Positions 1,086 through 59,770 of a stretch of DNA of 64,000 nucleotides are shown piece by piece. Source of the DNA: Haliotis rufescens. Lineage: Eukaryota. Within the stretch, counting starts at the first letter, position 1. The number at the start of each line of letters is the position of its first letter. The notes under the pieces are model-generated. The model ran no database searches. It was not told where the DNA came from and worked only from the letters and a program-made list of their open reading frames with translations. The stretch covers positions 39,990,001 through 40,054,000 of the forward strand of contig NW_025964001.1 of assembly GCF_023055435.1 (NCBI RefSeq). The letters run 5' to 3'. The position numbers were made by a program, and so were the translations under genes.

Positions 1086-1257
1086 AAGGTTCAACACCCC
1101 AGCATAACGTTAGTTGGTTTAAGTACGGAATCTGCTTGAAATCTTGGTTTGAACCACAAGCTGACTCATAGTAGACTGAGGGCTGTACAGTAAATAGTGA
1201 TGCGACATGTTTGCTTTAATCGATATTTGTATAAGATTTCAAGAATGATTATCTAGT

Positions 1258-1521
1258 TTGTTTGTTTCTTGTTTAACGCCGCACTCTATTATTCCAGCTA
1301 TATGACGGCGGTCAGTAAATCATCGAGTCTGGACCAGACAATCCAGTCATTGATATAATGAGCATCGATCTACGCAATTGGGATACGATGACGTGCATCA
1401 ACCAAGTCAGCGAGCCTGACCACCCGATCCCGTTAGTCGCCTCCTACGACAAGCATAGCCGCCTTTTACGGCAAGCATGTCTTGCTGAAGACTTATTCTC
1501 TACCCGGATCCTCACAGGTCC
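1258..1521 (-). mobile_element. SINE-like family B, full length (no tRNA head)
   Basis: Matches copies at 12.2, 22.1, 31.4, 32.2 and 45.1 kb; (AAAC)n tail; TSD attatctagt at 1248-1257 and 1522-1531. Confidence 0.9.
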
Positions 1522-1599
1522 ATTATCTAGTATTATAGTATAGGACCAATATCATGGAACATCATCTATCAAAAACTATCGACGAACACTATCTAGAGA

Positions 1600-4206: not shown

Positions 4207-6106
4207 GTTGCCCATATCCAATGTAGGCCTAGACCTTGTTAATTGTGCCCTATATCGTTGTCCATATGCATTGTAGATATAGACCTTGTAAATTGTGCCC
4301 TATATCGTTGCTCACATCCAGTGTAGGTCTAGACCTTGTTAATTGTGCCCTATATCGTTGTCCATATCCAGTGAAGGTCTAGACCTTGTTAATCGTGCCC
4401 TATATCGTTGTCCATATCCAGTGTAGATCTAGACCTTGTAAATTGTGCCCTATATCGTTGCTCACATCCAGTGTAGGTCTAGACCTTGTTAATTGTGCCC
4501 TAAATCGTTGTACGTATCCATTGTAGATCTAGACCTTGTAAATTGTGCCCTATATCGTTGCTCACATCCAGTGTAGGTCTAGACCTTGTTAATTGTGCCC
4601 TAAATCGTTGTACGTATCCATTGTAGATCTAGACCTTGTAAATTGTGCCCTGTATCGTTGCTCACATCCAGTGTAGATCTAGACCTTGTTAATTGTGCCC
4701 TATATCGTTGTCCACATCCAGTGTAGGTCTAGACCTTGTTAATTATGCCCTATATCGTTGTCCATATCCATTGTAGATCTAGACCTTGTAAATTGTGCCC
4801 TATATAGTTGCTCACACCCAGTGTAGGTCTAGACCTTGTTAATTGTGCCCTATATCGTTGTCCATATCCAGTGTAGATCTAGACCTTGTTAATTGTGCCC
4901 TATATCGTTGTACGTATCCAGTGTAGATCTAGACCTTGTTAATCGTGCCCTATATCGTTGTCCATATCCATTGTAGATCTAGACCTTGTAAATTGTGCCC
5001 TATATAGTTGCTCACATCCAGTGTAGGTCTAGACCTTGGTAATTGTGCCCTATATCGTTGTCCATATCCAGTGTAGATCTAGACCTTGTTAATTGTGCCC
5101 TATATCGTTGTACGTATCCAGTGTAGATCTAGACCTTGTTAATTGTGCCCTATACCGTTGTCCATATCCAGTGAATGTCTAGACCTTGTTAATTGTGCCC
5201 TATATCGTTGTCCACATCCACTGTAGATCTAGACCTTGTTAATTGTGCCCTATATCGTTGTCCACATCCAGTGTAGATCTAGACCTTGTTAATTGTACCC
5301 TATATCGTTGTCCATATCCAGTGAAGGTCTAGACCTTTTTAATTGTGCCCTATATCGTTGTCCACATCCAGTGTAGGTCTAGACCTTGTTAATTGTGCCC
5401 TATATCGTTGCCCATATCCAGTGTAGGTCTAGACCTTGGTAATTATGCCCTATATCGTTGTACGTATCCATTGTAGGTCTAGACCTTGTTAATTGTGCCC
5501 TATACCGTTTTCCATATCCAGTGTAGATCTAGACCTTGTTAATTGTGCCCTATACCGTTGTCCATATCCAGTGTAGGTCTAGACCTTGGTAATTGTGCCC
5601 TATATCGATGTACGTATCCAGTGTAGGTCTAGACCTTGTTAATTGTGCCCTATACCGTTGTCCACATCCAGTGTAGGTCTAGACCTTGGTAATTATGCCC
5701 TATATCGTTGTCCACATCCAGTGTAGGTCTAGACCTTGGTAATTATGCCCTATATCGTTGTCCACATCCAGTGTAGGTCTAGACCTTGTTAATTGTACCC
5801 TATATCGTTGTCCATATCCAGTGTAGGTCTAGACCTTGTTAATTGTGCCCTATATCGTTGTACGTATCCAGTGTAGATCTAGACCTTGTTAATTGTGCCC
5901 TATATCGTTGCTCACATCCAGTGTAGGTCTAGACCTTGTTAATTGTGCCCTATACCGTTGTCCATATTCAGTGTAGATCTAGACCTTGTTAATTGTGCCC
6001 TATACCGTTGTCCATATCCAGTGTAGATCTAGACCTTGTTTATTGTGCCCTATATCGTTGTACGTATCCAGTGTAGATCTAGACCTTGTTAATTGTGCCC
6101 TATATC
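4207..6106. repeat. 50-bp tandem satellite, about 38 units
   Basis: The agacct motif recurs exactly every 50 bp from 4231 to 6081; unit agaccttgttaattgtgccctatatcgttgtccatatccagtgtag(a/g)tct. Confidence 0.97.
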
Positions 6107-6818: not shown

Positions 6819-9800
6819 CACAGCCCTCATTGATATAAATTTACTCTTCATGCATCTTAGATTTTATCATGATGGTGGTTTTATCAATCATTCCTGTTGC
6901 AAAGTTTTTCGTTGTCGATAGATATATTGAATGACAATGCGCTGATTCATGCGTGAGACAAATACACCAGTCATTATTTTCCTGCTTTCAACAATAACAT
7001 CTATCATTAACCTACACTGTCACTCGATCAACAGGCCAAATCTCGCCCGATCGAGACTTGACGTGTTTTAACAAGGATGCTGTAATGATATCGTGTAAGT
7101 AATATAATCTATATAAACTTGACTGGGCAGTCCCGCCTCGCCTCAACCCGACTGCTCTGTTGTGCGACACAATACTACTTCCCCATCGACCCTGTAGCTT
7201 TCCGAGCATGACAGCCCCAACATTAGGGTTAGTCGCGTGGAAAGTCGCAGCAATTACCGGCCACTGGGCTTTTTCTTCACCATGCCCGGCTAGTTTCGCA
7301 ATAACAGCGGGCGCAACACAAACAATATAGGGAAAATTATATCATTTAATTTCATTTTCATAGCGTCCCCCTCCTGTCTATAAGGAAATATTTTCAGTTG
7401 TGACACCTTTTCTGGAGTGCTGACTGACACGTGTGTCTGGCGTTGCTGTCGTGACGCTCGTACATACGTCACGTTTAATACTCAATTTTAACTATCATAT
7501 TATATATTAATATCAGTATATTTATGGTAAACTACCCCATTTTTCTATAGACCCTTTCGAAATGTCGTTCCTCGTAATAACCTTAACAATATGTAGAAAT
7601 AGTATCTGCAGATTTTGTGGCGGGTGGAGTTACTTCTATTACTGGACGGGACCTTGCACGTCGAATCAAACTCACAAGGTTTTTAACCGGTGTTTGCGTT
7701 TTCAATCACTCTTGTTTCTGAATTATGATTGAAATGAATTTATTAAATAAACAGCTATGTACTCGGTGTTATATTGTTAGAAGGGTTGTACTTACCCAAC
7801 AATATGCCCACGCACACCTCGCGTTTGCATTATACTAATTTCATTGAGATTTTATATAGGTATTAAACAGTAAATATTTATGAGTGGTTATTAATATGTC
7901 ACGTATGGTGACTTAGTTTAATTTTAGTGCATCGTTGTTTAATGGAAATGGTGTTAAAGCAAGTTTTGTCTTTGCGTGGTAGTAGTGACTTAAAATCGTT
8001 ATTCACACTTCATAATATGTTAACCAAGGCGATTACACCCTATAACTATTCCTAAAATATTTTACCAAGATGAAAACACTTTTGACTATGGACAATGTTA
8101 AAACCTATCTGAGCCATTGACTTGTCTGTCAACCCCCCCCTCCCCTCCCCCCACCCCCACCCCCCTCCTCATTAGATACAGTTGAAAGTCGAAATAACAA
8201 TTACATTGACTCGATTAGATAATACATGGGCTAGATGCATCTCCTTGGCTGAGCCCGTGTGACATGCAGTGAGTCGGAACGGCCGTCTCCTCTCCCTACG
8301 GAGCTGCCCTCAGTTAAAAGCAGGTGCAGGGAGACAGATCGAGGAAGACTTGAATGATGCGCTTCACTGGACATCAAAGAAGCCGACGAGTCTATTTGGA
8401 CAGGTATCTCAGGTGGGGTTTCAGGACAGACTTACGTCACGTGGTGTCGCTTCGATATGGTTGACTGACAGAGCGCGGTGCACTGCAGTGTACATTTGAA
8501 CATGATGTAAAGGATTAATTAATATATCATGGAGACTCCCATGGGAGAATTGAGTGGTTTGCTGTCGTCCACAGAGTGACGTAATCGATTGTAAGCACGG
8601 TTTCTGAAGAAAGACTTTCCCCCATATGATTCAAGGTTATTTTAAAGGTATTAGCTGAAATCGAATTATCAACAGGGCTCAAGTCGAGGTAATTACTTCG
8701 TTGATCTGAAATTGTCAAGTAGAATACTATTGTTAGTAGAATTTACACGGTGATATATAATAACATGAAGGCCAACCAATAGACATAGCAATATCAGCAA
8801 GCATTGTTGAAAACAACGCGTACCATCGGTGTGCCAACCGTATATATGTCGGTACAATCAGTCAATCAGGTTCATCCTCTGGGTAAGCCACGTAAAACCC
8901 TACCCCGGGGCTGTGCCCTGTGGATCCCCCCCCCCCCCCCCCTCCCATCCCTCCCCCAACCCCCTTCTCCCCGGCTACAGCAATTAACATTAGAGTGTAT
9001 TATATTCACATCAGGTGACAGCACCGTTTGACTAGATCACACTGACCCTCGGGCCTCGTCGTAGACTTAGATCGATCACTCAAGGAAAACGATGTACCGC
9101 GTATGTATATAGGATATTTTTAATCAGAGTGTGATACATGACGTTTTTTTAATTATCATTGTATGATTATAGTACGTAAACATCTATATGGTCTGACAAT
9201 AAACAGTCCTTAACATTCATGATCAATGTAACTAACCTTGACCTTTTGCTATCTTCTTTGAGATAAATGTCCTTAATATTGCTTTTCAGCTCTTAATTAT
9301 GAAATATCAAACTAGATGTTTTAGTTTTAACAAAGTACACGGAATTTAACTTTTTAACTTAAAGCACAACATACTGACAAATGAAATTAAATGTGTTAGC
9401 CCTTATCTAGACATATGGACATAAGCTTTTTTAGATTTTAACAAGACATTTGGAATTGAACGTGTTCCGGTTAAAAGAGATCTATTGACAAAATCTTGAT
9501 AAAACTTGTTAAAGAGTCGTACAAAGAACATATTTACACCAAAAAGAGTCATATGTGATTTCATTGTTATCTAAAAATCAACAAACAACTGCTTTGATCC
9601 CACAACCTGCGCGAATGCAGATTGAAATCCCAGCTAGAGGCCCAGTTGTAGCTGTGACGTCATAGTGGAGAGACGTCCACCATTTTGTTTCATTTTCAAT
9701 GCATTCATCTACATGACAATGAAGTCATTTTCCGTTATTATCTGGGCATTGAAGACGTAAAATTGGGCATTGTGTGGGCTATGTGGTGAACTAGTCAAAC

Positions 9801-10754
9801 AAAAGTACCAAGAGTCATTTCTTGAAATTTCCGAGCGCAAAGGCCGACTTAGCGAGGAGGAAAGTTTGGATAAAGCGATGTTATCTATGGCAACCGACTT
9901 GACGTGTCGTTTTGTTATTCTTGCATTTTGAGGCATCAGTCTGTGAGAGAGATCCACATAAACTGAACGAACTTGGTTACGAAAATGTATTTAGCACTCA
10001 TTGTCATATATAATCCATAGCGCATTGAACAGAATACAAGGTTATGTAGTGGGCATATATTCAGTTCATGGTCTTGCGAACCCTTGTCTGATTCTGCAGG
10101 AAAAATCCTTCTTATATCAGTCACAAAACATGCAGGTTGAACTTTTCTACATTTTCTAGGGTGCCCCCCCCCCCCCCCCCTGAATCCCAAATACCATCTA
10201 AGTTTTCACTCACTCTGTCTCTTTTCACTGTTAAGTCTCGTTTACTCACCCCTTAAATCAGAATACTACTTTACACAAATCTCAAAAGCATTGATAAAAG
10301 GGTGCGATTCAAGTAAAATTTCCGAAAAAATATCGAAAAAGAGTAAATATATAAAGGGAACTTTTGCGTACATCATTAATTTTATTCAGAAATGTCATGA
10401 TAGCCTATAACACCAGATTGTGTTTCCTAGTCTTTCCGTGTTGACATCAGACTGATTGTCTTCACTCGGTAGATCTTCCTCGCTTTCCTCGCTGCTGTCA
10501 AGATTATTTTGACTAACAACTGGCTCGTATCGATATGGACGAGTATTGTAAGGCCACTGAGCGAAAATTCAACGTTTTCATCGATGCCATGGCGAACGCG
10601 AGTAATCTCCTTTAATACTAGACATATAGACGAAACAATGTTTAAGTCTAAACTAGAAATTTGAAACGAAGCGCTTCATAATATAGCACAGGTCAAGGTA
10701 TCCCATCGATGTGCAGAAGGTGTATATCATGATATATATGTATATCTAGTGTCT

Positions 10755-12464: not shown

Positions 12465-12559
12465 TGTTATGGATGTGTGCGTCGTGTCGAAGTATAAGGT
12501 GTTCACCCATTTGCTAACGCGTTTAGGCCAGCCTGAGGTGTTATGGTAAGTGTTGATGA

Positions 12560-14076
12560 GTGTTTGGGTCAATGTTGGGTAGTGTTGTGGTCGATGTGGG
12601 TAGTGTTGTGGTCAGTGTGAGTAGTGTTGTGGTAAGTGTGGGGTAGTGTTGTGGTCAGTGTAGGGTGTGTTGTGGTCAGTGTGGGCAGTGTTGTGGTCAG
12701 TGTGGGGTAGTGTTGTGGTCAGTGTAGGTAGTGTTGTGGTCAGTGTAGGGTGTGTTGTGGTCAGTGTGGGGTAGTGTTGTGGTCAGTGTAGGGTGTGTTG
12801 TGGTCAGTGTGGGGTGTGTTGTGGTCAGTGTAGGGTTGTGTTGTGGTCAGTGTAGGGTGTGTTGTGGTCAGTGTAGGGTGTGTTGTGGTCAGTGTGGGGT
12901 GTGTTGTGGTCAGTGTAGGGTGTGTTGTGGTCAGTGTGGGGTGTGTTGTGGTCAGTGTAGGGTAGTGTTGTGGTCAGTGTAGGGTGTGTTGTGGTCAGTG
13001 TGGAGTTGTGTTGTGGTCAGTGTGGGGTGTGTTGTGGTCAGTGTGGGGTGTGTTGTGGTCAGTGTGGAGTTGTGTTGTGGTCAGTGTAGGGTGTGTTGTG
13101 GTCAGTGTAGGGTGTGTTGTGGTCAGTGTGGGGTGTGTTGTGGTCAGTGTAGGGTTGTGTTGTGGTCAGTGTAGGGTTGTGTTGTGGTCAGTGTAGGGTG
13201 TGTTGTGGTCAGTGTGGGGTAGTGTTGTGGTCAGTGTAGGGTGTGTTGTGGTCAGTGTGGAGTTGTGTTGTGGTCAGTGTAGGGTGTGTTGTGGTCAGTG
13301 TAGGGTGTGTTGTGGTCAGTGTGGGGTGTGTTGTGATCAGTGTGGGGTGTGTTGTGGTCAGTGTAGGGTGTGTTGTGGTCAGTGTGGGGTGTGTTGTGGT
13401 CAGTGTAGGGTGTGTTGTGGTCAGTGTGGGGTGTGTTGTGATCAGTGTGGAGTTGTGTTGTGGTCAGTGTAGGGTGTGTTGTGGTCAGTGTGGAGTTGTG
13501 TTGTGGTCAGTGTAGGGTGTGTTGTGATCAGTGTAGGGTGTGTTGTGGTCAGTGTGGAGTTGTGTTGTGGTCAGTGTGGAGTTGTGTTGTGGTCAGTGTA
13601 GGGTGTGTTGTGGTCAGTGTGGGGTGTGTTGTGGTAAGTGTGGGGTGTGTTGTGGTCAGTGTAGGGTGTGTTGTGGTCAGTGTGGAGTTGTGTTGTGGTC
13701 AGTGTGGGGTGTGTTGTGGTCAGTGTGGAGTTGTGTTGTGGTCAGTGTAGGGTGTGTTGTGATCAGTGTGGAGTTGTGTTGTGGTCAGTGTAGGGTGTGT
13801 TGTGGTCAGTGTGGAGTTGTGTTGTGGTAAGTGTGGGGTGTGTTGTGGTCAGTGTAGGGTGTGTTGTGGTCAGTGTGGAGTTGTGTTGTGGTCAGTGTGG
13901 AGTTGTGTTGTGGTCAGTGTGGGGTGTGTTGTGGTCAGTGTAGGGTGTGTTGTGGTCAGTGTAGGGTAGTGTTGTGGTTAGTCTGGGGTAGTGTTGTGAT
14001 CAGTTTGAGTAGTGTTGTGGTCAGTGTGGGGTAGTGTCGTAGTCAGTGTAGGGTTGTATTGTGGTCAGTGTGGGGT
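12560..14076. repeat. 21-23 bp GT-rich minisatellite (gtgttgtggtcagtgtagggt)
   Basis: About 70 visible units; unit length varies out of frame, so the Cys/Val-rich ORFs are artefacts. Confidence 0.97.
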
Positions 14077-14270: not shown

Positions 14271-14974
14271 AATTGGACACGAATTGACGCTCCAAATCAA
14301 GCATGATGCTGTAGTATGACAAATGTTATCTTGAACAGTACAATGTTTGGATAAAATACGCACAGTCTCACAGTCCGGGCTGTTCTTTTGTATACTGACC
14401 ACGCGAGGAATGAGAATTAAACTAAATCAAAACCAGAAAAAAATCATCTCACTCTTTAAACATCTTTAACATCTTAGTCAGCCTCGACATAAAATCTTCT
14501 GCAACCCAATTTCACCGCAAGTAGCGGCAAGGTAAAATAACGATACACCATTCGGCCTGGTCAAAGATTTTCATCAGGTTTAAATTCAAAGTAATGAATC
14601 ATAAAAATCGTTGTCATGGAAACGAGTCGGTAATTACGATCGATACAAGAAGCCATATGTTGAATGCACGAATTGAAACATTTATACCAAAATCTTTAGA
14701 CTACAGCTGATTATATCAGGATGATTAGCCACAGCGATTAACACACTAACCCTGAGAACACAACGGAGAGGTAAATAGTTATTTTGCATTATCTACAGGA
14801 ACCTCTTAATGGCAGTTCTATATATAACAACGTTTGCTTAATTAACCAGTACAGTTATGTGAGAATCTAACGAAGAAGCGAGGCGGTTATCTTGTGGGGG
14901 TAGTACTAGCGGGAAAGAACAGTTGTGTTTGTTGTGGCGGGGATTGAAGACGTGTTGGTTAAGTCGGGATCGAT

Positions 14975-17900
14975 AGTGTTGGTGATGTGGTCAGTGTTGT
15001 TGATGTGGTCAGTAGTGTTGGTGATGTGGTCAGTGTTGTTGATGTGGTCAGTAGTGTTTTTTATGTGGTCAGTGGTGATGTGATCAATAGTGTTGGTGAT
15101 GTGATCAGTGGTGTTGGTGATGCGGTCAGTAGTGTTGGTGATGTGGTCAGTAGTGTTGGTGATGTGGTCAGTGGTGTTGGTGATGTGGTCAGTAGTGTTG
15201 GTGATGTGGTCAGTAGTGTTGGTGATGTGGTCAGTAGTGTTGGTGATGTGGTCAGTGGTGATGTGATCATCAGTGTTGGTGATGTGATCAGTGGTGTTGG
15301 TGATGTGGTCAGTAGTGTTGGTGATGTGGTCAGTAGTGTTGGTGATGTGGTCAGTGGTGTTGGTGATGTGGTCAGTGGTGTTGGTGATGTGGTCAGTTGT
15401 GTTGGTTATGTGGTCAGTGGTTCTGGTGATGTGGTCAGTGGTGTTTGTGATGTGGTCAGTAGTGTTGGTGATGTGGTCAGTAGTTTTGATGTGGTCTGGA
15501 GAAGTGATGTGGTCAGTGGTGTTAATGTGGTCAGTGATGTTGGTGATGTGGTCAGTGGTGTTGATGTGGTTAGTGGTGTTGGTTATGTGGTCAGTGGTGT
15601 TGGTGATGTGGTCAGTGGTGTTGGTGATGTGATCAGTAGTTTTGATGTGGTCTGGAGAAGTGATGTGGTCAGTGGTGTTGATGTGGTCAGTGATGTTGGT
15701 GATGTGGTCAGTGGTGTTTGTGATGTGGTCAGTGGTGTTGGTGATTTGGTCAGTAGCGTTGATGTTGTCAGGAGTGTTGGTGATGTGGTCAGTGGTGTTG
15801 GTTATGTGGTCAGTGGTGTTGGTGATGTGGTCAGTTGTGTTGGTGATGAGGTCAGTGGCGTTGGTGACGTGATCAGTAGTGTTGGTGATGTGGTCAGTGG
15901 TGTTGGTGATGTGGTCCGCTGTGTTGGTTATGTGGTCAGTGGTGTTGGCGATGGGTCAGTAGTGTTGGTGTGGTCAGTGGTGTTGGTGATGTGGTCAGTG
16001 GTGTTGGCGATGTGGTCAGCAGTGTGGTTGATGTGGTCAGTGGTGTTGGTGATGTGGTCGGCAGTGTTGATGTGATCAGGAGAAGTGATGTGGTCAGTGG
16101 TGTTGATGTGGTCAGTGGTGTTGGTTATGTGTCCAGTGGTATTGGTGATGTGGTCAGTAGTGTGGGTGATGTGGTCAGGGGTGTTGGTGATGTGGTCAGT
16201 AGTGTTGGTGATGTGGTCAGTGGTGATGGTGATGTGGTCAGTAGTGTGGGTGATGTGGTCAGTGGTGTTTGTGATGTGGTCAGTGGTGTTGGTGATGTGG
16301 TCAGTAGCGTGAATGTGGTCAGTAGTGTTTGTGATGTGGTCAGTGGTATTGGTGATGTGGTCAGTAGCGTGAATGTGGTCAGTAGTGTTTGTGATGTGGT
16401 CAGTGGTGATGTGGTCAGTGGTGTTGGTGATTTGGTCAGTAGCGTTGATGTTGTCAGGAGTGTTGGTGATGTGGTCAGTGGTGTTGGTTATGTGGTCAGT
16501 GGTGTTGGTGATGTTGTCAGTGGTGTTGGTGACGTGATCAGCAGTGTTGGTGATGTGATCAGCAGTGTGGGTGATGTGGTCAGTGGTGTTGGCGATGTGG
16601 TCAGTAGTGTTGGTGTGGTCAGTGGTGTTGGTGATGTGGTCAGTAGTGTTGATGTGGTCAGTGGTGTTGGTGATGTGGTCAGCGGTGTTGGCGATGTGGT
16701 CAGCAGTGTGTTGATGTGGTCAGTAGTGTTGGTGATGTGGTCAGTGGTGTTGGTGATGTGGTCAGTAGTGTTGGTGTGGTCAGAGATGTTGGTGATGTGG
16801 TCAGTGGTGTTGGCGATGTGGTCAGCAGTGTGGTTGATGTGGTCAGTGGTGTTGGTGATGTGGTCGGCAGTGTTGATTTGATCAGGAGAAGTGATGTGGT
16901 CAGTGGTGTTGGTTATGTGTCCAGTGGTATTGGTGATGTGGTCAGTAGTGTTGGTGATGTGGTCAGTAGTGTTGGTGATGTGGTCAGTAGTGTTGGTGAT
17001 GTGGTCAGTAGTGTTGGTGATGTGGTCAGTGGTGTTGGTGATGTGGTCAGTGGTGTTTGTGATGTGGTCAGTGGTGATGGTGATGTGGTCAGTAGTGTGG
17101 GTGATGTGGTCAGTGGTGTTTGTGATGTGGTCAGTGGTGATGTGGTCAGTGGTGTTGGTGATTTGGTCAGTAGCGTTGATGTTGTCAGGAGTGTTGGTGA
17201 TGTGGTCAGTGGTGTTGGTGATGTGGTCAGCAGTGTGGGTGATGTTGTCAGGAGTGTTAGTGATGTGGTCAGTTGTGTTGGTGATGTGGTCAGTAGTGTG
17301 GTTGATGTGGTCATTAGTGTGGGTGATGTGGTTAGTGGTGTCGGTGATGTGGTCAGTAGTGTGGGTGATGTGGTCAGTAGTGTTGGTGATGTGGTCAGTT
17401 GTGTTGGTGATGTGGTCAGTAGTGTGGGTGATGTGGTCAGTAGTGTGGGTGATGTGGTCAGTGGTGTTTGTGATGTGGTCAGTGGTGTTGGTGATTTGGT
17501 CAGTAGCATTGATGTTGTCAGGAGTGTTGGTGATGTGGTCAGTAGTGTGGTTGATGTGGTCAGTGGTGTTTGTGATGTGGTCAGTGGTGTTGGTGATGTG
17601 GTCAGTGGTTTTTTTGATGTGGTGAGTGGTGTTGATGATGTGGTCAGTGGTGATGGTGATGCGGTCAGTAGTGTTGGTGATGTGGTCAGTAGTGTGGCTG
17701 ATGTGGTCAGTAGTGTTGATGTAGTCAGTGGTGTTGGTGATGTTGTCAGTAGTGTTGGTGATGTGGTCATTAGTGTGGGTGATGTTGTCAGCAGTGTTAG
17801 TAATGTGGTCAGTAGTTTTGATGTGGTCAGTAGTGTTGGTGATGTGGTCAGTGGTGTCGGTGATGTGGTCAGTAGTGTGGTTGATGTGGTCAGTGGTGTT

Positions 17901-19695
17901 TGTGATGTGGTCAGTAGTGTTGGTGATGTAGTCAGTAGTGTGGGTGATGTTGTCAGCAGTGTTGGTGATGTGGTCAGTGGTGTTTGTGATGTGGTCAGTA
18001 GTGTTGGTGATGTAGTCAGTGGTGTGGGTGATGTGGTCAGTAGTGTGGTTGATGTGGTCAGTGGTGTTTGTGATGTGGTCAGTAGTGTTGGTGATGTGGT
18101 CAGTAGTGTGGCTGATGTGGTCAGTAGTGTTGATGTAGTCAGTGGTGTTGGTGATGTTGTCAGTAGTGTTGGTGATGTGGTCAGTAGTGTGGGTGATGTT
18201 GTCAGCAGTGTTGGTAATGTGGTCAGTAGTTTTGATGTTGTCAGAAGTGTTGGTGATGTGGTCAGTGGTGTTGGTGATGTGGTCAGTAGTGTGGCTGATG
18301 TGGTCAGTAGTGTTGATGTAGTCAGTGGTGTTGGTGATGTTGTCAGTAGTGTTGGTGATGTGGTCAGTTATGTGGGTGATGTTGTCAGCAGTGTTGGTAA
18401 TGTGGTCAGTAGTTTTGATGTTGTCAGTAGTGTTGGTGATGTGGTCAGTGGTGTCGGTGATGTGGTCAGTAGTGTGGTTGATGTGGTCAGTGGTGTGGGT
18501 GATGTGGTCAGTAGTGTTGGTGATGTGGTCAGTGGTGTTTGTGATGTGGTCAGTAGTGATGGTGATGTGGTCAGTAGTGTTGATGTTGTCAGGAGTGTTT
18601 GTGATGTGGTCAGTGGTGTCGGTGATGTGGTCAGTAGTGTTGGTGATGTGGTCAGTGGTGTGGGTGATGTGGTCAGTAGTGTGGTTGATGTGGTCAGTGG
18701 TGTTTGTGATGTGGTCAGTAGTGTTGGTGATGTGGTCAGTAGTGTTGGTAATGTGGTCAGTAGTGTGGTTGATATGGTCAGTGGTGTTTGTGATGTGGTC
18801 AGTAGTGTTGATGTGGTCAGTAGTGTTGGTGATGTGGTCAGTAGTGTGGGTGATGTGGTCAGTGGTGTTTGTGATGTGGTCAGTGGTGTTGGTGCTTTGG
18901 TCAGTAGCGTTGATGTTGTCAGGAGTGTTTGTGATGTGGTCAGTGGTGTTTGTGATGTGGTCAGTGGTGTTGGTGATGTGGTCAGCAGTGTGGGTGATGT
19001 TGTCAGTAGTGTTGGTGATGTGGTCAGTGGTGTTTGTGATGTGGCCAGTGGTGTTGGTGATGTGGTCAGTAGTGTGGGTGATGTTGTCAGGAGTGTTGGT
19101 GATGTGGTCAGTGGTGTTGGTGGTGTGGTCAGCAGTGTTGGTGATGTGGCTGTAGTGTTGATGTGGTCAGTAGTGTTGGTGATATGGTCAGTGGTGTTTG
19201 TGATGTGGTCAGTGGTGTTGGTGATCTGGTCAGTAGCGTTGGTGATGTTGTCAGTAGTGTTGATGATGTGGTCAGTAGTGTGGGTGATGTTGTCAGTGGT
19301 GTTGGTGATGTGGTGAGTAGTGTGGGTGGTGTGGTCAGTGGTGTTTGTGATGTGGTCAGTGGTGTTGGTGATTTGGTCAGTGGTGTTGATGTTGTCAGTA
19401 GTGTTGGTGATGTGGACAGTAGTGTGGGTGATGTGGTCAGTGGTGTTTGTGATGTGGTCAGTGGTGTGGGTGATGTGGTCAGTGGTGTTTGTGATGTGGT
19501 CAGTGGTGTTTGTGATTTGGTCAGTAGCGTTGATGTTGTCAGGAGTGTTGGTGATGTGGTCAGTGGTGTTTGTGATGTGGTCAGTGGTGTTGGTGATGTG
19601 GTCAGTGGTGTTTGTGATGTGGTCAGTGGTGTTGGTGATTTGGTCAGTAGCGTTGGTGATGTGGTCAGTAGCGTTGGTGATGTGGTCAGTAGCGT
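14975..19695. repeat. 4.7-kb minisatellite, 21-bp unit (gtggtcagtagtgttggtgat) with 15/18-bp variants
   Basis: Over 200 visible units; source of the VVSSVGD and TTSPTLL ORFs. Confidence 0.97.
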
Positions 19696-20250
19696 CGAAG
19701 GTGTCAACACTACTGAACTGTAACTTCCGTAATGGTCAGTAGTGTCGGGGATGATGATGTTGTGTTGGCGATGTCAGGGATAATGTAATTTGGCTGCGAT
19801 GTTGTTTCAGATTGTGTTGTAGATGAAGATGCTGTCAGACGTATCGGGACAAAGATAATTCGCAGTCATTTCAAGGACATTCATGTCAGCCTTTCAGACA
19901 GTGATCCAGATCGAAGCCACTCACCTGTCACCGGACAGATAAACTATCCCCAAATGGGTCAGTCAATCAAATCGAAAAAACTCGCCACGCACTGTGTAAT
20001 CTCTGGCCTGAACGTACAAACATATATAGGACAGCTGGAAGGTAAGCTAAAAATTCACAGTTGGATGTGTTTTGCTGACAACGCTTGTGAAGGAAAGCGC
20101 CCCCGCAGCGTTATGTCTCCTACCCTATCTGATACCCACATGGCTTTCTCCCTGACCGAATCAAGTAAGGAATTATTTATTAAAAACAACATAATCTGTT
20201 CCATGGCCAAATTCAACTGATAAAGGCTGAATCCGCGACAACAAAATAAA

Positions 20251-20824
20251 TAGAGGATTCATCACGAGTGTTTTTTAATATGGGAAATATCAACCGAGTC
20301 TTAGTTAATCGGTATTTGCCGAGCCTTTGACGACGCAAATACCGATTAACGGGACGAGGTTGATATTTCCCATATTAAAAAACACGAGTGATGAATTCTA
20401 TTTATCATTTTCACATTTTTGCTTCCAAATTAAGGAATAATTGCATTAATCATTAACATCAGCAACTTGTCGAAATCTTACGTATAGATCGTACGTAGTG
20501 ATACATGTTTTCCATAGCCATGTAAACCAAAATAAACAATTCGCTGAGAAAAAAAGTTCCTCGGATTATTTTAAACAAAATACTTGAACAGACTTTTGCA
20601 GAATAATTGAAACTTTAATAACGGTAACAACAACGATTCTGTGTAATCTGATTATATCTCTGGTGTAACTTCACTTATAATATATAGTTTCAAATCAAAC
20701 CGCTCGCTCTTCCGGTTATCTAATTTGCATATCTAATTTGCATACTTATGTCATTGGGGTATGACATACATGTTTTTATGTCATAAGCTTATGTCATGGA
20801 TAAATGCATAAGTTAAATGATAAA
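20251..20824 (+). mobile_element. Hairpin-headed non-autonomous DNA element, copy 1
   Basis: 150-bp near-perfect palindrome 20251-20400, then tttatcattt ... aaatgataaa; near-identical inverted copy at 47661-48233. Confidence 0.85.
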
Positions 20825-30322: not shown

Positions 30323-31158
30323 ATCTTCTTTAGGTTACAGGCAATGTGATCTTCTTCAGATTAAAGACATTGTGATCTTCTTTAGGTTACAAGCAATGTG
30401 GTCGTCCTGGGTTAAAGGCATTGTGATCTTCTTTAGGTTACAGGCAATGTGATCTTCTTCAGATTAAAGACATTGTGATCTTCTTTAGGTTACAAGCAAT
30501 GTGATCGTCCTGGGTTAAAGGCATTGTGATCTTCCTAGGTTAAAGGCATTGTGATCTTCTTCAGATTAAAGGCATTGTGATCTTCTTCAGATTAAAGACA
30601 TTGTGATCTTCTTTAGGTTACAAGCAATGTGATCGTCCTGGGTTAAAGGCATTGTGATCTTCCTAGGTTAAAGGCATTGTGATCTTCTTCAGAATAAAGG
30701 CATTGTGATCTTCTTCAGATTAAAGACATTGTGATCTTCTTCAGATTAATAACATTGTGATCTTCTTTAGGTTAAAGACAATGAGATCTTCTTCAGATTA
30801 AATACATTGTAATTTTCTTTTGGTTAAAGGCATTGCGATCCTCCTAGGTTAAATGCATTGCGATCTTCCAAGGTTGAAGGAATTGTGATCTTCCAAGGTA
30901 AATGACAGTGGGATCTTCGTCAGATTAAAGACAGTGTGATCTTCTTTGGGTTAAAGACATTGTGATCTTCCAAGGTAAATGACAGTGGGATCTTCTTCAG
31001 ATTAAAGACATTGTGATCTTCTTTAGGTTCAAGACATTGTGATCTTCCAAGGTAAATGACAGTGGGATCTTCTTCAGATTAAAGACATTGTGATCTTCTT
31101 TAGGTTAAAGGCATTTTGATCTTCTTAGGTTAAAGACATTGTGATCTTCTTAGGTTAC
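30323..31158. repeat. 25-26 bp minisatellite (ttaaagacattgtgatcttct..ag)
   Basis: Over 30 visible units. Confidence 0.95.
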
Positions 31159-31380
31159 ATTCGTTGCGTCCTATATGACCTTCTTCCGTGTCCTGGGTTG
31201 ACCTGTTTCAAAGGAAGGGCACATGAAATATCCACGCTGAATCATGTCATACGCCAAATGCTACGATCCCTTTGTGCACATGGACCCTCCTTGAAATGAA
31301 GGATATCATGCCCTGAAAGTATGTCTTTGGGATATTTAGCTACATGACCTGGGATGACCTGGAAACAGTAAGTGTGCGAA

Positions 31381-31611
31381 TGATTTTGTTTTATAACACG
31401 GCACTCAGCAATATTCCAGCTACAAATAATCGAGTCTTGACCAGACAATCCAGTGACTGACATCACGAGCATCGTTCTAAGAAATTGGGATGCGATGACA
31501 TGCATCAACCAACAGACCAAGTCAACGACCCTGACCAACTGATACCGTTAGTCGCCACTTACGATAAGCATGGGTTGCAAAAAACAAACCTAACCCGATT
31601 CTTCACAGGGT
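31381..31611 (-). mobile_element. SINE-like family B variant with altered head and a single cgtaag..gcgactaa module
   Basis: Alignable to family B; shares private variants with 45081-45292. Confidence 0.88.
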
Positions 31612-32066
31612 GTTGAGTGCGAGTGACCTTGTGTGATAAATGTGAAGGACTCCATGACCTTGACCTGCATAAAATATAGACCGCAATATTTTAACAGTGA
31701 CAGATACAAGACACTTAAACAAATATATCAGAAAAAACAAGTAAGTCTACAATACTTTGGCAAGTCGAGATTTCTTCAGTTTCAAATCAAGTTATTTTGT
31801 GGGCACCTTTCTATTATATGATATGCAAGTGATTCCGTGGCATTTGATTGGCTAACCAAACCATTTATTTATAACATAATAAGACCACGCCCACAAACGG
31901 ACTGCTGTTTCCTGATTGGCTGATAATAGAATGGGCAGGGCTGGTGTTGTATTATTGCGAAGAATACTGTCACTGATTTCGTATTGTTGTCTAACGTTAA
32001 TGATTATTTTTTTGCATATATGATTAAGTAAGTAGACTGTGAACAGTAGTCTGTGAACTTATTATT

Positions 32067-32434
32067 GGACCCGTGACGATCCAGGGTAGAATAGTTGTTC
32101 GTCGATAGTTTTCATAGATGATGTTCCATGATATTGGTTCTATACTGTAATACTAGATAATGGACCTGTGAAGATCCGGGTAGAGAATAAGTCTTCAGCA
32201 ACCCATGCTTGCCGTAAAAGGCGACTATGCTTGTCGTAAGAGGCGACTAACGGGATCGGGTGGTCAGGCTCGCTGACTTGGTTGATGCATGTCATAGTAT
32301 CTCAAATGCGTGGATCGATGCTCATGATGTAAATAACTGGATTGTCTGGTCCAGACTCGATTATTCACAGACCGCTGTCATATAGCTGGAATATTGCTGA
32401 GTGCGGCGTTAAACAAGAAACAAACAAACAAACA
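32067..32434 (+). mobile_element. Chimeric family B locus: short head fragment, captured flank of the 1.5-kb copy, then full element
   Basis: Head 32067-32094; 32095-32161 is the reverse complement of about 1522-1590; full element from 32162; TSD-like aacttatt on both sides. Confidence 0.9.
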
Positions 32435-33370: not shown

Positions 33371-34630
33371 ATATGAGGTACCCATTAACCTTTCAATCCA
33401 TGGTTTAATTCATTTTTTTTATCCATCTTTTCATCATTATAATTTTAATTGCATGGAACTGCTCTGTGTCAAAGCCGAAGTCCCACTCTGTAATGTGGGT
33501 CACTGGCCGGGTTACAGAACCAGGGAATGCTGCTGCACGCTCTATCGTCTACAGCTGTTGATGAAGACAATATCAGCTGACCGGCATCTCTGCCAACTGT
33601 TACATGGGGCATTATGATTTGACGATAATTTATGGAATTGTTGAATAGAAGTATACAGTGCAGTCAGTAAGTGTGTGCGTGAGCGGAGTCCCTCGGTCAC
33701 TAACTCGCACATCGATAATCAATCACCCAAACATTTGAACGCCATCGTAAGTGTGATTGTCGTCGGAATGATCTTCACGAAGCAAGTATGAAACGCCACT
33801 GGGACACATTTCATAAGCTATCCTAACACTGCGATTACCGTAACGCCTATGTTTTAACATAGACTTGCAAAAGTCCAAGCGCTACGATCGCTTTGTGAAA
33901 ATGCCCATTTCACGAAGCAGTCGTAGCGATACGCCGTCGTCGCGGTGCTGCAGTCATACCTCCCTTGGCGTGTGCATCAATGTTATGTTTGATCGTGTCA
34001 ACTTTTACTTATATTTTATTAAATGGGTTTGAATGTGTCTCGTGGGACTAATGGCCTGATGTTGTTTATCGTATAGTTATTTTAATCGTTCCATACTGTA
34101 CATATAACATGTGACACAATTCTTCTTTCTGTTAAACAATGGGAGTTACGAGAGTCGTAGTACAACGATCGCTTAGTCTGTCTTACATATCCTGATACAA
34201 GTATGTCAAATACAGTCCATGCAAGTCTATAATGTTTGGCAAGTCTAGTCTTCTGCAGTATCAGGCAGAGAGTCTCTGGGCACCTTTTTATTAATTTTTT
34301 ATTAAGATAATTTAACAACTATTTTTTCTGTACGACTAGATGTTAGTCTAACGATCGCTTTACGACACAGAGTCTACCAAACAAGGGTCAACTGTAATGA
34401 AGCATAACAGGGAGGGTAGTGATTGCAGGTGCCTAAAGAGGGGAAGGGGGTGGGGGGTCGGGATGGGGAGGGGCATTCTCAGTTTTAATTTTTTTCTACC
34501 TTATTACTTTTGTAGTTGGGACATGGGTCCGATTTGTGAAATCAAAAACAACATCGATGGTTTTTATGCCAATGGATCTTTTGTGACGGGCAATCATTTT
34601 GCCGTTGACTATGATTCCGGACATTTTGAG

Positions 34631-34909
34631 TGAGTGAGTGTGGTTTTACGCCGCTTTTAGAAATATTCCTGCAATATCATGGTGGGGGACACCAGAAATG
34701 GGCTTCACACATTGTACCCATGTGGGGAACTAACCCGGGTGACAGAATAAAGAGTGAGTATGGTTTTACGCCGCTTTTAGAAATATTCCAGCAATATCAT
34801 GGTGGGGGACACCAGAAATGGGCTTCACACATTGTACCCATGTGGAATTGAACCCGGGTTATCGGCGTGACGAGCGAACACTTTAACCACAAGGCTACCC
34901 ACCGCCCGC
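34631..34909 (-). mobile_element. SINE family A with tandem duplication of its 3' part
   Basis: Partial copy 34631-34740 plus full copy 34753-34909 inside a single TSD cattttgag. Confidence 0.9.
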
Positions 34910-43830: not shown

Positions 43831-44259
43831 CATTCGTCACCACTCGCCCCTTTCCGTAAACTGCAAGGAGACTCGTCCCCCTATCGATGAATGTTATGTG
43901 CGAAACTACGACAAACCAATCGGAATGCGCGTATGCTTTCAAGTTCTTCGTCAAAGAATCCCTCAGAAATAATGTTTGATTATATATATGTCTTGCATCT
44001 AAAATTATACCCAAGACGCAGTTAAATGTCTTCAATCATACTGTATAATTCCGCATGTCCCGATGTGCTTGAAGTTGCATCTGAAATATATATAATACAT
44101 GGGGAAATATATGTGAACCATTACGCAACGAGTTGATAATTGTTTTAGGTATGCCCGTTTGCGCTAAGGCGGAACCCGGTCACAAAAATGGCCACGAGAG
44201 GGGCACGAGTCGCTATTCGGCTTGTCCCGGAAAAAAAACACGAGTTGGTCACGAATGGT
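43831..44259. mobile_element. MITE of about 430 bp; diverged inverted copy at 52778-53208
   Basis: TIR cattcgtcaccactcg / cgagttggtcacgaatg; bodies of the two copies align. Confidence 0.8.
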
Positions 44260-44623: not shown

Positions 44624-45020
44624 TCTGGCTACAAAGCAAGATTCTCCATATCAACATCAACCAAAGAGGACTTCATCGAAATCCAAAGAAAAAAGCCAGC
44701 TATTAACAGAGACTAAAATCTGTATCACTGCTTGCGGTGTATATTCTTAATATTTAAGTAAGAAAAATGATTACAATTTAAAATAAAACAATTATAGTTA
44801 TTTCCACTTGTTAATATGATTTGTATATTTACACAAAAATATGTTGTTAATTTCTTGTCACGGCATGTTGTCATTAGCTATGTGATACCGACGTTGACTA
44901 TGATGTCACACAGTTCCATGGTTCATTGCAATGTTCTTCAATAAGCAATACTTCGTTCCTCTTTTCTCGATGAGGTCAAGAGAAGACATTTGAGTTTATA
45001 ACTTCATGTATAACTTCAAT

Positions 45021-45292
45021 GGGATCGGGTGGTCAGGCTCCAGCCCTTCACATTTATCACACAAGGTCACTCGCACTCTCACCCTGTGAAGAATCGGGTT
45101 AGATTTGTTGTTTTTTGCAACCCATGCTTATCGTAAGTAGCGACTAACGGTATCAGTTGGTCAAGGTCGTTGACTTGGTCTGTTGGTTGATGCATCTCAT
45201 CGTATCCCAATTGTGTGGGTTGATGCTTATGATGTCAGTCACTGGATTGTCTGATCCATCTGGAATATTGCAGCGTTAAACAAACAAACAAA
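45021..45292 (+). mobile_element. Chimeric family B locus: internal fragment, captured flank of the 31.6-kb copy, then element
   Basis: 45021-45040 is B-internal sequence; 45045-45079 is the reverse complement of about 31612-31648. Confidence 0.88.
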
Positions 45293-47660: not shown

Positions 47661-48233
47661 TTATCATTTAACTTAAGCATTTATCCATGACATAAGCTTA
47701 TGACATAAAAACATGTATGTCATACCCCAATGACATAAGTATGCAAATTAGATATGCAAATTAGATAACCGGAAGAGCGAGCGGTTTGATTTGAAACTAT
47801 ATATTATAAGTGAAGTTACACCAGAGATATAATCAGATTACACAGAATCGTTGTTGTTACCGTTATTACAGTTTCAATTATTCTGCAAAAGTCTGTTCAA
47901 GTATTTTGTTTAAAATAATCCGAGGAACTTTTTTTCTCAGCGAATTGTTTATTTTGGTTTACATGGCTATGGAAAACATGTATCACTACGCACGATCTAT
48001 ACGTAAGATTTCGACAAGTTGCTGATGTTAATGTTTAATGCAATTATTCCTTAATTTGGAAGCAAAAATGTGAAAATGATAAATAGAATTCATCACTCGT
48101 GTTTTTTAATATGGGAAATATCAACCTTGTCCCGTTAATCGGTATTTGCCTCGCCAAAGGCTCGGCAAATACCGATTAACTAAGACTCGGTTGATATTTC
48201 CCATATTAAAAAACACTCGTGATGAATCCTCTA
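47661..48233 (-). mobile_element. Hairpin-headed non-autonomous DNA element, copy 2
   Basis: Near-identical reverse complement of 20251-20824. Confidence 0.88.
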
Positions 48234-48728
48234 TTAATAGTACACTTGTCGTCTCCAACATATAGACATTCTTAAAACACATGACATCTTATTAATCCGG
48301 TTTGTGTAAATGTCAATTTTCAACTCCCTGGCGTTTAAACAAACCAAACTGCGTGTTGCATGCAAGGTTTCAATCACATTAGAGTTGCATCCTACCGGGT
48401 ACCCATTTACAGCTCGGTGTTCGGAGGCGTGTATAGGCAGCATGTGTTTTGACATCCTGTGATTCCATGTTTGAGAGGAACAGAATTCCACGGTCACACT
48501 TCACCCATTCAACTACTCTCCGCCACCAGGTCACCTGATGTGTGACCAAGCATGATGGAATGGACAATACCAAAATGTAGGTTAACCCAGCGGTTATGGT
48601 GTAGTTGTTAGTTATAAACCTCAAAATTTAACCAAGGCACGAACCGTCGATCTAGAAATTTCATCGCACCGACTGTGGATCGTTGCTCTTCTACCAACTA
48701 CTGGTGTGTATGGCCGACATACAATTAT

Positions 48729-52777: not shown

Positions 52778-53208
52778 CATTCGTGACCAACTCGTGTTAT
52801 TCCGGGGCAAGAAAAATACCGACTCGTGCCTCTTTTTTAGGCCATTTTTGCGACTGGGCTCCGTCCAAGCGCAAACGGGCAACACTAAAAGAATTGTCAA
52901 CTCGTGGACTACTTCCAACGTATATTTCCCCCGTATCTATAATATATATTGCAGATGTTATTTGCAACACATCGGTCTTCAGTTGTTATACGTATGATTG
53001 AACACATTTAACTGTATCTTGGGTATATTTTTAGATACAAGACGTGGGTAACATCAAAAATTATTCCTGAAGCATTCCTTGACCGAAGTGCTTGATGTCA
53101 AACGCGCATTCTGATTGCTTGGTCGTATTTTTGCCCATAACTGTCATCATCGACAGTGGGACGAATTTTCTTGCAGGTTACGGAAAGGGGCAAGCGGTGA
53201 CGAATAAT
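52778..53208. mobile_element. MITE, inverted relative of 43831-44259
   Basis: cattcgtgaccaactcg ... ggtgacgaat ends. Confidence 0.78.
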
Positions 53209-59084: not shown

Positions 59085-59770
59085 TTTGCATGACACGCCA
59101 TGACACATCATGGCACACCATGACACATGACACATCATGGCACGTCATTACACGTGACACATCATGGCACGTCATTACACGTGACACATCATTACACGTG
59201 ACACACTATGCCACATCATTACACGTGACACATCATTATACGTGACAATTCATGGCACACCGTGACACGTAACACATCATGGCACACCATGACACATGAC
59301 ACATCATGGCACGTCATTACACGTGACACATCATTACACGTGGCACATCATTACACGTGACACAATATGCCACATCATTACACGTGACACATCATTATAC
59401 GTGACATAATATGCCACATCATTACACGTGACACATCATTATACGTGACAATTCATGGCACACCATGACACGTAACACATCATGGCACACCATGACACGT
59501 GACACATCATGGCACACCATGACACGTGACACATCCTTGCACATCATTACACGTGCCACATCATGACACACCATGACACGTGACACATCATGGCACATCA
59601 TTACACATCATTGCACGTGACACACCATGCCACATCCTTACACGTGACACATCATAGCTTATCATGGCACACCATGACACGTGACACATCATGGCACATC
59701 ATTACACGTGACACATCATGGCACATCATGACAACATGGCAGATTATGGCACATCATGACACATCATTGA
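59085..59770. repeat. Minisatellite of 10- and 7-bp subunits (27-bp super-unit), CACGTG-rich
   Basis: Recurring acacgtgacacatcatggcacaccatg. Confidence 0.93.

Follow-up and report, generated by a model that had tools for sequence, protein, structure and literature searches.

A chimeric SINE in the genome of Haliotis rufescens, probably left by break repair that copied the flank of a neighbouring element

Structures close to the one reported here have been described in several systems, summarized below from those parts of the source papers on which the comparison draws. In repair-mediated duplication (RD), an interrupted transposable element (TE) holds nearby chromosomal DNA that has one other copy, and this is ascribed to synthesis-dependent strand annealing (SDSA) (Pace, Sen, Batzer and Feschotte 2009; PMC2671141). 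The RD set was drawn from vertebrates only, with donors within 5 kb; junctions carried filler or microhomology (2-9 nt at inspected breakpoints) and a small deletion, the insert had no tail and the RD rate was linked to L1 activity. The screen behind it kept cases in which both fragments were shorter than 95% of the consensus, and nested insertions were discarded (PMC2671141). Long-tract gene conversion with non-canonical termination proceeds by one-end invasion and copying past the homology, the ends then being rejoined through microhomology or added nucleotides (Hartlerode et al. 2016; PMC5104497), and non-allelic gene conversion between neighbouring Alu SINEs gives hybrids over a range of ∼10 kb (PMC8230782). 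In Haliotis, the LP-SINEs (LINE-promoter SINEs) are flanked by target-site duplications (TSDs), with a non-tRNA head whose first 70 bp are homologous to the Nimb-17_LMi 5' UTR and a tandem-repeat tail (Matetovici et al. 2016; PMC4758252); flank capture is not described in the parts of that account drawn on here. No report of SINE-primed flank capture, or of such capture in molluscs, was found in the literature searched, which was incompletely covered.

The window analysed here is a stretch of 64,000 nucleotides from H. rufescens (NCBI RefSeq assembly GCF_023055435.1, contig NW_025964001.1, positions 39,990,001 to 40,054,000). A copy of SINE family B at 45 kb was resolved into the parts below, shown with the copy at 31.6 kb; positions within the family carry the letter B.

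45018-45040, plus strand: B84-106 fragment, 22/23 to 23/23 identical to other B copies
45041-45044, plus strand: 4-nt filler at the putative end-joined junction (1-4 nt by choice of alignment)
45045-45082, plus strand: captured donor 5' flank, 38 bp, containing the 5' half of the donor TSD
45083-45185, plus strand: donor-derived B2-116 tract, sharing 15 substitutions, a 22-bp deletion and an 8-bp insertion
45186-45203, plus strand: switch interval from donor-type to the recipient's own sequence (B117-134), placed by variants
45204-45292, plus strand: the recipient's own 3' part of B, with two deletions and an (AAAC)n tail; B126-250 is 79% identical to the donor and 90% to the consensus
31385-31609, minus strand: donor B copy, old, with a degenerate 12-bp TSD, ∼82% identical to the consensus in its 5' half
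31610-31648, minus strand: donor 5' flank that was copied

The short B fragment had been placed in front of the flank in a preliminary description of this DNA, and it was found there. DNA to its left was single-copy in a genome search, and the fragment would be the left stump of an original, 5'-truncated recipient SINE. A nearby template for the filler was looked for and not found, microhomology was not clear, and a search behind the fragment for a second family with a different head found none. The claim that the 45-kb flank is the reverse complement of the 31.6-kb flank proved exact over a 34-mer (45045-45078 against 31615-31648), with the coordinates originally given 1-3 bases off; ∼3e-11 such pairs are expected by chance in 64 kb. 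The common flank reaches 45082 and 31610, with two small differences beyond the exact 34/34; homology between the two copies ends at 45045 and their 3' flanks differ. A flank repeated across the genome would have counted against the earlier reading, and a DNA search of the 1.33-Gb genome, which skips very common words, returned two matches, the donor and the recipient. The 31.6-kb copy was designated the donor because the TSD is retained there; the recipient has only its 5' half. No convincing TSD was found around the whole 45-kb structure, and none framing the inner unit of flank and element was found at 45 kb or 32 kb. Donor and recipient lie 13.5 kb apart in inverted orientation. The copied insert comes to ∼140-160 bp in total (38 bp of flank plus element) and has neither tail nor TSD of its own, and 10-27 nt of the recipient were lost or overwritten.

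All four private variants named in the preliminary description were present in both elements. The T-rich change among them is real and maps to B23-33, which by inspection is a stem strand and not the pseudoknot strand proposed; AACCC downstream of it is intact. The variant GGTATCAGTTGG had one more genomic copy (contig C79, L003), without the other shared variants. Among 23,005 pairs formed by 215 B copies in 1.464 Mb, the 31.6-kb and 45-kb copies shared the most rare substitutions (nine, the next best pair sharing six).

Relatedness to the donor was confined to one part of the 45-kb copy. Across B1-125 it was identical to the donor at 97/101 positions (96%), the highest value of 161 copies, none of the other 160 being as close (median 76.5%), and across B126-250 identity was 69/87 (79%), a level equalled or exceeded by 142 of 208 other copies. 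The elements had been said to differ more in their 3' half, and a sharp fall in sliding identity to the family average had been named as the mark of conversion or repair; both were observed. The last variant common to the pair (B116) and the first donor-only variant (B134) limit the switch, and the fragment end at B106 falls just before it. Donor-derived changes were shared at 17/18 sites before B117 and at 1 of 12-13 after it (Fisher test, p ∼1e-6 to 1e-5, the cut being chosen post hoc). The exception in the 3' half is the donor variant B169, which has a family frequency of 9%; deletions near B203-217 overlap in the two copies and could count as a second shared 3' change. As identity and shared changes both collapse in the 3' half, only the 5' half of the 45-kb copy is ascribed to the donor. 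The earlier proposal that this copy derives from the 31.6-kb copy thus stands for the flank and 5' half, where the donor TSD bears it out, and falls for the 3' half, which represents a different copy.

Non-CpG divergence of the recipient's own part from the consensus was 5/71 at 45 kb and 18/396 (4.5%) when pooled, against 7/131 differences between donor and recipient tracts (∼2.7% per lineage); it is thus not clear from these values that the own part predates the event. The 45-kb element is a chimera in which the 38-bp flank and B1-116 come from the 31.6-kb copy, while the B fragment in front and the 3' half are its own, and was most likely generated when a break inside an existing SINE was repaired through one-ended copying. 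It is a real, old and neutral-looking structure of a recurrent type, probably a repair scar. The ORF listing for 20-59 kb of the window contained no obvious gene and, as far as was seen, no gene or function is touched at the locus.

Short-read contigs of eight runs were compared with the 45-kb site. The left junction, whose spanning by reads had been in question, was bridged in six of the eight runs, under five species labels. Run X1 (possibly the assembly's own sample) covered 44640-45195 with zero differences, X9 covered 44966-45078, and X10, X12, X13 and X14 each covered 44702-45090 or beyond in a single contig with 16-22 differences; X5 was borderline at the left junction (one side having only 30-34 letters) and X6 was too short. 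The donor form was recovered as a separate contig in several runs. No empty or uninterrupted pre-event site was seen in the eight runs, every run that covered the junction having the derived form, and positions 45210-45231 were bridged by no contig among the matches listed. The scar is considered old because it was found in all runs covering it. The tract is 96% identical and the flanks are 4-5% diverged, and the event is about as old as the split of the sampled species, or older.

A companion event lies at 32 kb in the same window, with the following parts.

32068-32429, plus strand: companion event, made up of a B1-26 fragment, a 77-bp flank and B1-26 from the copy at 1256-1519 (minus strand), and its own B38-263
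1256-1596, minus strand: donor of the 32-kb event, with TSD, and the copied flank

The layout here is the same as at 45 kb, as had been described. A TSD encloses the whole 32-kb structure, donor and recipient have a rare tail variant in common, and divergence of the own part equals that of the tract. Recurrence was assessed in 1.464 Mb of contig C223, made up of the window with 800 kb of its surroundings and three 200-kb blocks from other parts of the contig. Short 5'-flank captures were found in 3/177 copies of family B, 1/172 of A, 0/116 of C and 0/22 of D, with none clear among 74 of E. The third B event runs from L022 to L025 over 22 kb in direct orientation, behind a B48-81 fragment. The A event, in a tRNA-headed SINE, runs from L103 to L102 over 13.6 kb, also direct, with 71 bp captured and a 20-nt remnant of an A tail in front. 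A boundary-free scan brought up a 3' mirror, in which L036 consists of B, ∼200 bp of 3' flank belonging to L039, a copy at a distance of 23 kb, and a B172-217 remnant; its donor side was assigned by the remnant, the TSD not being clear. One more 3'-flank match (L211, 30 bp, 1.7 kb away, no remnant) came from a 1.824-Mb scan, and a mirror-pattern scan gave 34 matches. Captures of 5' and 3' flanks stood at 4:1 in the 1.46-Mb sample (p = 0.375). The process therefore reaches beyond family B (the A pair), beyond inverted pairs and beyond 5' flanks (the mirror).

A prospective test was drawn from genome-wide fragment-spacer-head patterns, which gave 84 and 26 matches. Eleven candidates with a spacer of at least 30 nt that was not B-derived were taken (10 of the 26 and one of the 84); five were searched genome-wide and six within ∼30 kb on each side. 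On these other contigs donors were clear for two and probable for one, and none was found for eight. The L180 candidate (C13) has its donor 1.7 kb off in inverted orientation, with an identical 57-nt spacer and 6 nt of microhomology, and is the youngest event, its flank being identical. L191 (C79) has a direct donor 5.5 kb off (40/41), and L182 (C35) probably has an inverted one 7.2 kb off, judged by ∼18/19 AT-rich bases and two shared variants. No donor was found for L181 and L183 in the genome search, nor for L185 and C605:26802660 within ∼30 kb on each side, and the spacers of L202, L184, L193 and L178 are repeats.

Eight events are clear by flank sharing (45 kb, 32 kb, L025, A, mirror, C13, C79 and L211). 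Four are direct and four inverted, so that inversion relative to the donor, which the preliminary description had made part of the architecture, is not a rule. Donor distances in the fragment-bearing events were 1.7, 5.5, 13.5, 13.6, 22, 23 and 30.6 kb, in both orientations. The local process put forward earlier is indeed recurrent, since more events were found, but its figure of two in about six copies overstates the rate, which outside the window is 1/171 5'-intact B copies. That three B events fall inside 76 kb may point to a hot zone here, in a window that was picked because of such events. Scaled up from one event on one contig, the genome total may come very roughly to a thousand.

Several pairs were set aside during counting. 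Longer duplications were dropped as captures (L055, L130, L131/L134 and L216), as was L140/L142, a shared inverted-repeat element; other pairs were low-complexity or tail matches. L081, L231/L230, L007/L011, L032/L041 and L024/L025 were left out as ambiguous, and L068/L069 (170 bp of flank plus B1-130, ending in a minisatellite) was kept out of the event count. Insertions copied from nearby DNA, with a donor junction lacking SINE homology, were observed at L122:1272-1347 / L124:8808-8883 (76 bp, 27.5 kb), L133:6675-6920 / 9643-9888 (246 bp, 3 kb) and L069:3960-4259 / L068:7632-7931 (300 bp, 6.3 kb); all three sit beside broken B copies or in minisatellite.

The proposed pathway is ectopic synthesis-dependent strand annealing terminated by end-joining. 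A pre-existing, 5'-truncated B copy at 45 kb (B84-263) would have been broken near B106-134, for which the endonuclease of a partner LINE is a plausible source. Its right-hand end would then have paired with the 31.6-kb copy by strand invasion and been extended through the head and 38 bp of unique flank, the product now seen in the sequence. With the homology exhausted, the new strand would have been end-joined to the left stump, giving the observed junction with its 4-nt filler and 10-27 nt lost or overwritten, and the resulting old scar would be that carried by every run covering it (six of eight). Mirrors with a 3' flank are predicted since either end can invade, and one was found. In three B cases the fragment end lies close to the switch, as this pathway would predict (106 against 117-134, 26 against 27-37 and 81 against 74-84), and the C13 case agrees, the fragment ending at ∼126-132 and the switch lying at 135-139, with four donor-only changes inside the presumed tract; at C79 the tract extends at least 36 nt beyond the fragment end.

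Agreement between fragment end and switch point is likewise predicted by template switching in a new insertion, in which cDNA on B RNA would stall, jump at that point to another copy close by, either DNA or nascent RNA, enter its flank and return to the RNA to complete the fragment, so that the whole structure would be a single insertion into an empty site. This fits the 32-kb case best, where the TSD surrounds the whole and the tract is at least as old as the own part; the 4:1 excess of 5' captures points the same way, although it is not significant, as does the frequency of B heads behind B fragments without a remainder (17/30 loci). It is nevertheless considered unlikely. Leftward cDNA synthesis on sense RNA cannot yield the 3' mirror, the 20-nt tail remnant in the A case demands two switches, two precise switches are in general needed where one break suffices, and comparable local templated insertions exist without a SINE head. 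DNA repair is favoured over reverse transcription because of the proximity of donors, the occurrence of both orientations and both polarities, the involvement of a tRNA-headed family and the local templated insertions without SINE homology. Pol III SINE transcripts normally lack 5' flank, which bears on the A pair.

Capture of the flank by 5' transduction would entail a read-through transcript of the donor, with the 38-bp flank, being retrotransposed beside or into a B remnant, and a third copy later converting the 3' half. In its favour, the donor head has many mutations, through which a 5' processing signal, if there was one, may have been lost. Both copies also have one variant and an overlapping deletion in common in the 3' half, and the composite [B1-149][B] structures demonstrate that a B head can have other sequence in front of it. 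Retrotransposition is not local, however, and the donors all lie within 31 kb; identity drops from 96% to 79% instead of being uniform, the second event would need an edge that falls at the fragment end four times over, the insert is not framed by a TSD and the mirror cannot arise in this way. A scan of the 1.464-Mb sample gave no credible 5'-flank pair at a distance for B or A, eight candidates of the prospective test being left with no donor found, and transduction is regarded as very improbable. Less credible still is that the structure reflects a rare subfamily with a 5' extension, a remnant of a larger segmental duplication or an assembly error. Longer duplications do account for one B pair (L068/L069) and for several pairs of families A, C and E, but homology here covers just 38 bp on the 5' side, with different 3' flanks. 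The flank was found twice and the diagnostic motif three times in the genome, the third copy being unrelated, and these copy counts rule out a 5'-extended subfamily; independent short-read contigs under five species labels contain the junction, with the donor form separate in several runs, which refutes a left-junction artefact and argues against misassembly. A B-specific, 5'-only process tied to a dead ribozyme (B 3/86 and A 0/98 at first) was also dropped, given the A case and the mirror.

Positions of breakage were compared with the insertion habits of family B. At 30 loci from the 84 matches (L147-L176), the upstream fragment ended at B143-153 in 25, the pattern allowing ∼B136-166. Seven of the 30 are true nested insertions; their remainders all resume at B137-142, and in six of them several bases or more of overlap are duplicated. 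Another 17 lack a remainder, reading as a B fragment followed by a full B, and six are arrays or other arrangements. B copies appear to be preferred targets near B138-149, because fragment ends and remainders cluster there. In [B1-149][B] composites without remainder, divergence was 7.6% in the outer 5' part, 5.3% in the inner 5' part and 6.1% in the inner 3' part; the 17 loci are either internally primed insertions into an old copy or mobile retrotransposed dimers. The 45-kb switch and the fragment ends at C13, C79 and C35 (B126-132) lie just upstream of B138-149, which is suggestive of a tie between those break positions and the LINE target site, with the reservation that the search pattern was biased towards this region; the breaks at 32 kb and in L025 are elsewhere. 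It is possible, though tentative, that the partner LINE endonuclease prefers to cut B copies and that aborted insertions are rescued by copying the nearest SINE. If so, the retrotransposition machinery would drive a second route, at the level of DNA, by which SINEs are rebuilt from their neighbours and unique flank is shuffled across tens of kilobases, about a thousand times in the genome and missed by standard RD screens.

Family B has a non-tRNA head (Rfam tRNA matches fell on family A copies only), TSDs and an (AAAC)n tail. Its likeness by description to the Haliotis LP-SINE Hdi_LP is a lead to its identity, and family E, with internal (CA)n and a (CACCT)n end, is as described for Haliotis MESC SINEs (both in the parts of PMC4758252 drawn on here). 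For an HDV-like ribozyme in the B head no Rfam match was obtained, folding of the head was no better than that of shuffles (z = -0.3), and the HDV strand order could not be fitted to the head by inspection. In the B head at 32164-32205 of the window, inspection suggests a possible 8-bp stem (B6-13/B26-33) whose loop could pair with B36-40. Families A and B have a common 3' motif before different microsatellite tails, and because of this motif one partner LINE is suggested for both. At L014:3473-5149, ∼28 tandem copies of a 52-bp B-head unit precede a B element and form a minisatellite that arose from the 5' end of a SINE; B-head duplications of smaller size occur at L039:1515 and L095.

Other repeats were observed in the window. 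A 578-bp element forms an inverted pair (20246-20823 and 47661-48238, 98.6% identical) with a third copy at 98% in L078 and a 160-bp palindromic end, and looks like a young non-autonomous DNA element. A 435-bp inverted pair (43832-44257 and 52778-53205, 78% identity) falls outside all families modelled. Tandem and partial duplications of the tRNA-headed SINE A lie at 401-905 and 34627-34907, and five long tandem arrays at 4207-6106 (50-bp unit), 12537-14076, 14952-19706, 30323-31172 and 59089-59769, those at 12.5 kb and 15 kb being ∼71% alike.

Set beside RD, the 45-kb locus has its two B pieces within 30 nt of one another (ending at B106 and resuming at B117-134), an insert of at least 50 bp whose flank has a single other copy, and a junction with filler and a small loss and no tail. 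The donor distance of 13.5 kb exceeds the 5-kb limit of RD, under which one of the eight clear events falls; and unlike RD, the donor here is a SINE of the same family, 1.7-31 kb away across cases, with priming by more than 100 nt of homology. Judging from its methods as far as described in the parts used here, the RD screen would probably miss the 45-kb layout, because this reads as a fragment plus a full-length copy. For both reasons, the distance and the screen, the event is classed as working like RD and not as a member. Long-tract conversion as reported in PMC5104497 differs in that it concerns a mammalian-cell reporter, a sister chromatid and kilobase tracts, against an ectopic donor, a ∼150-bp tract and a fixed germline product here. 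Ordinary conversion, as between Alu elements in the account drawn on (PMC8230782), stays within homology and keeps length, whereas at 45 kb the tract exits the element, adds unique flank and duplicates part of the SINE. Each scar is the record of one ectopic repair in nature, from which the donor, the direction, the site of the break and the length of the tract can be read, and a whole-genome count would gauge homology-search range, orientation bias and end choice in the mollusc germline. A further caution is that repair chimeras can pass for 5' transductions, for SINE dimers or for full-length copies, with consequences for the dating of SINEs and the calling of subfamilies. The pathway itself is already known, and is here primed by long SINE homology and over longer distances than in RD.
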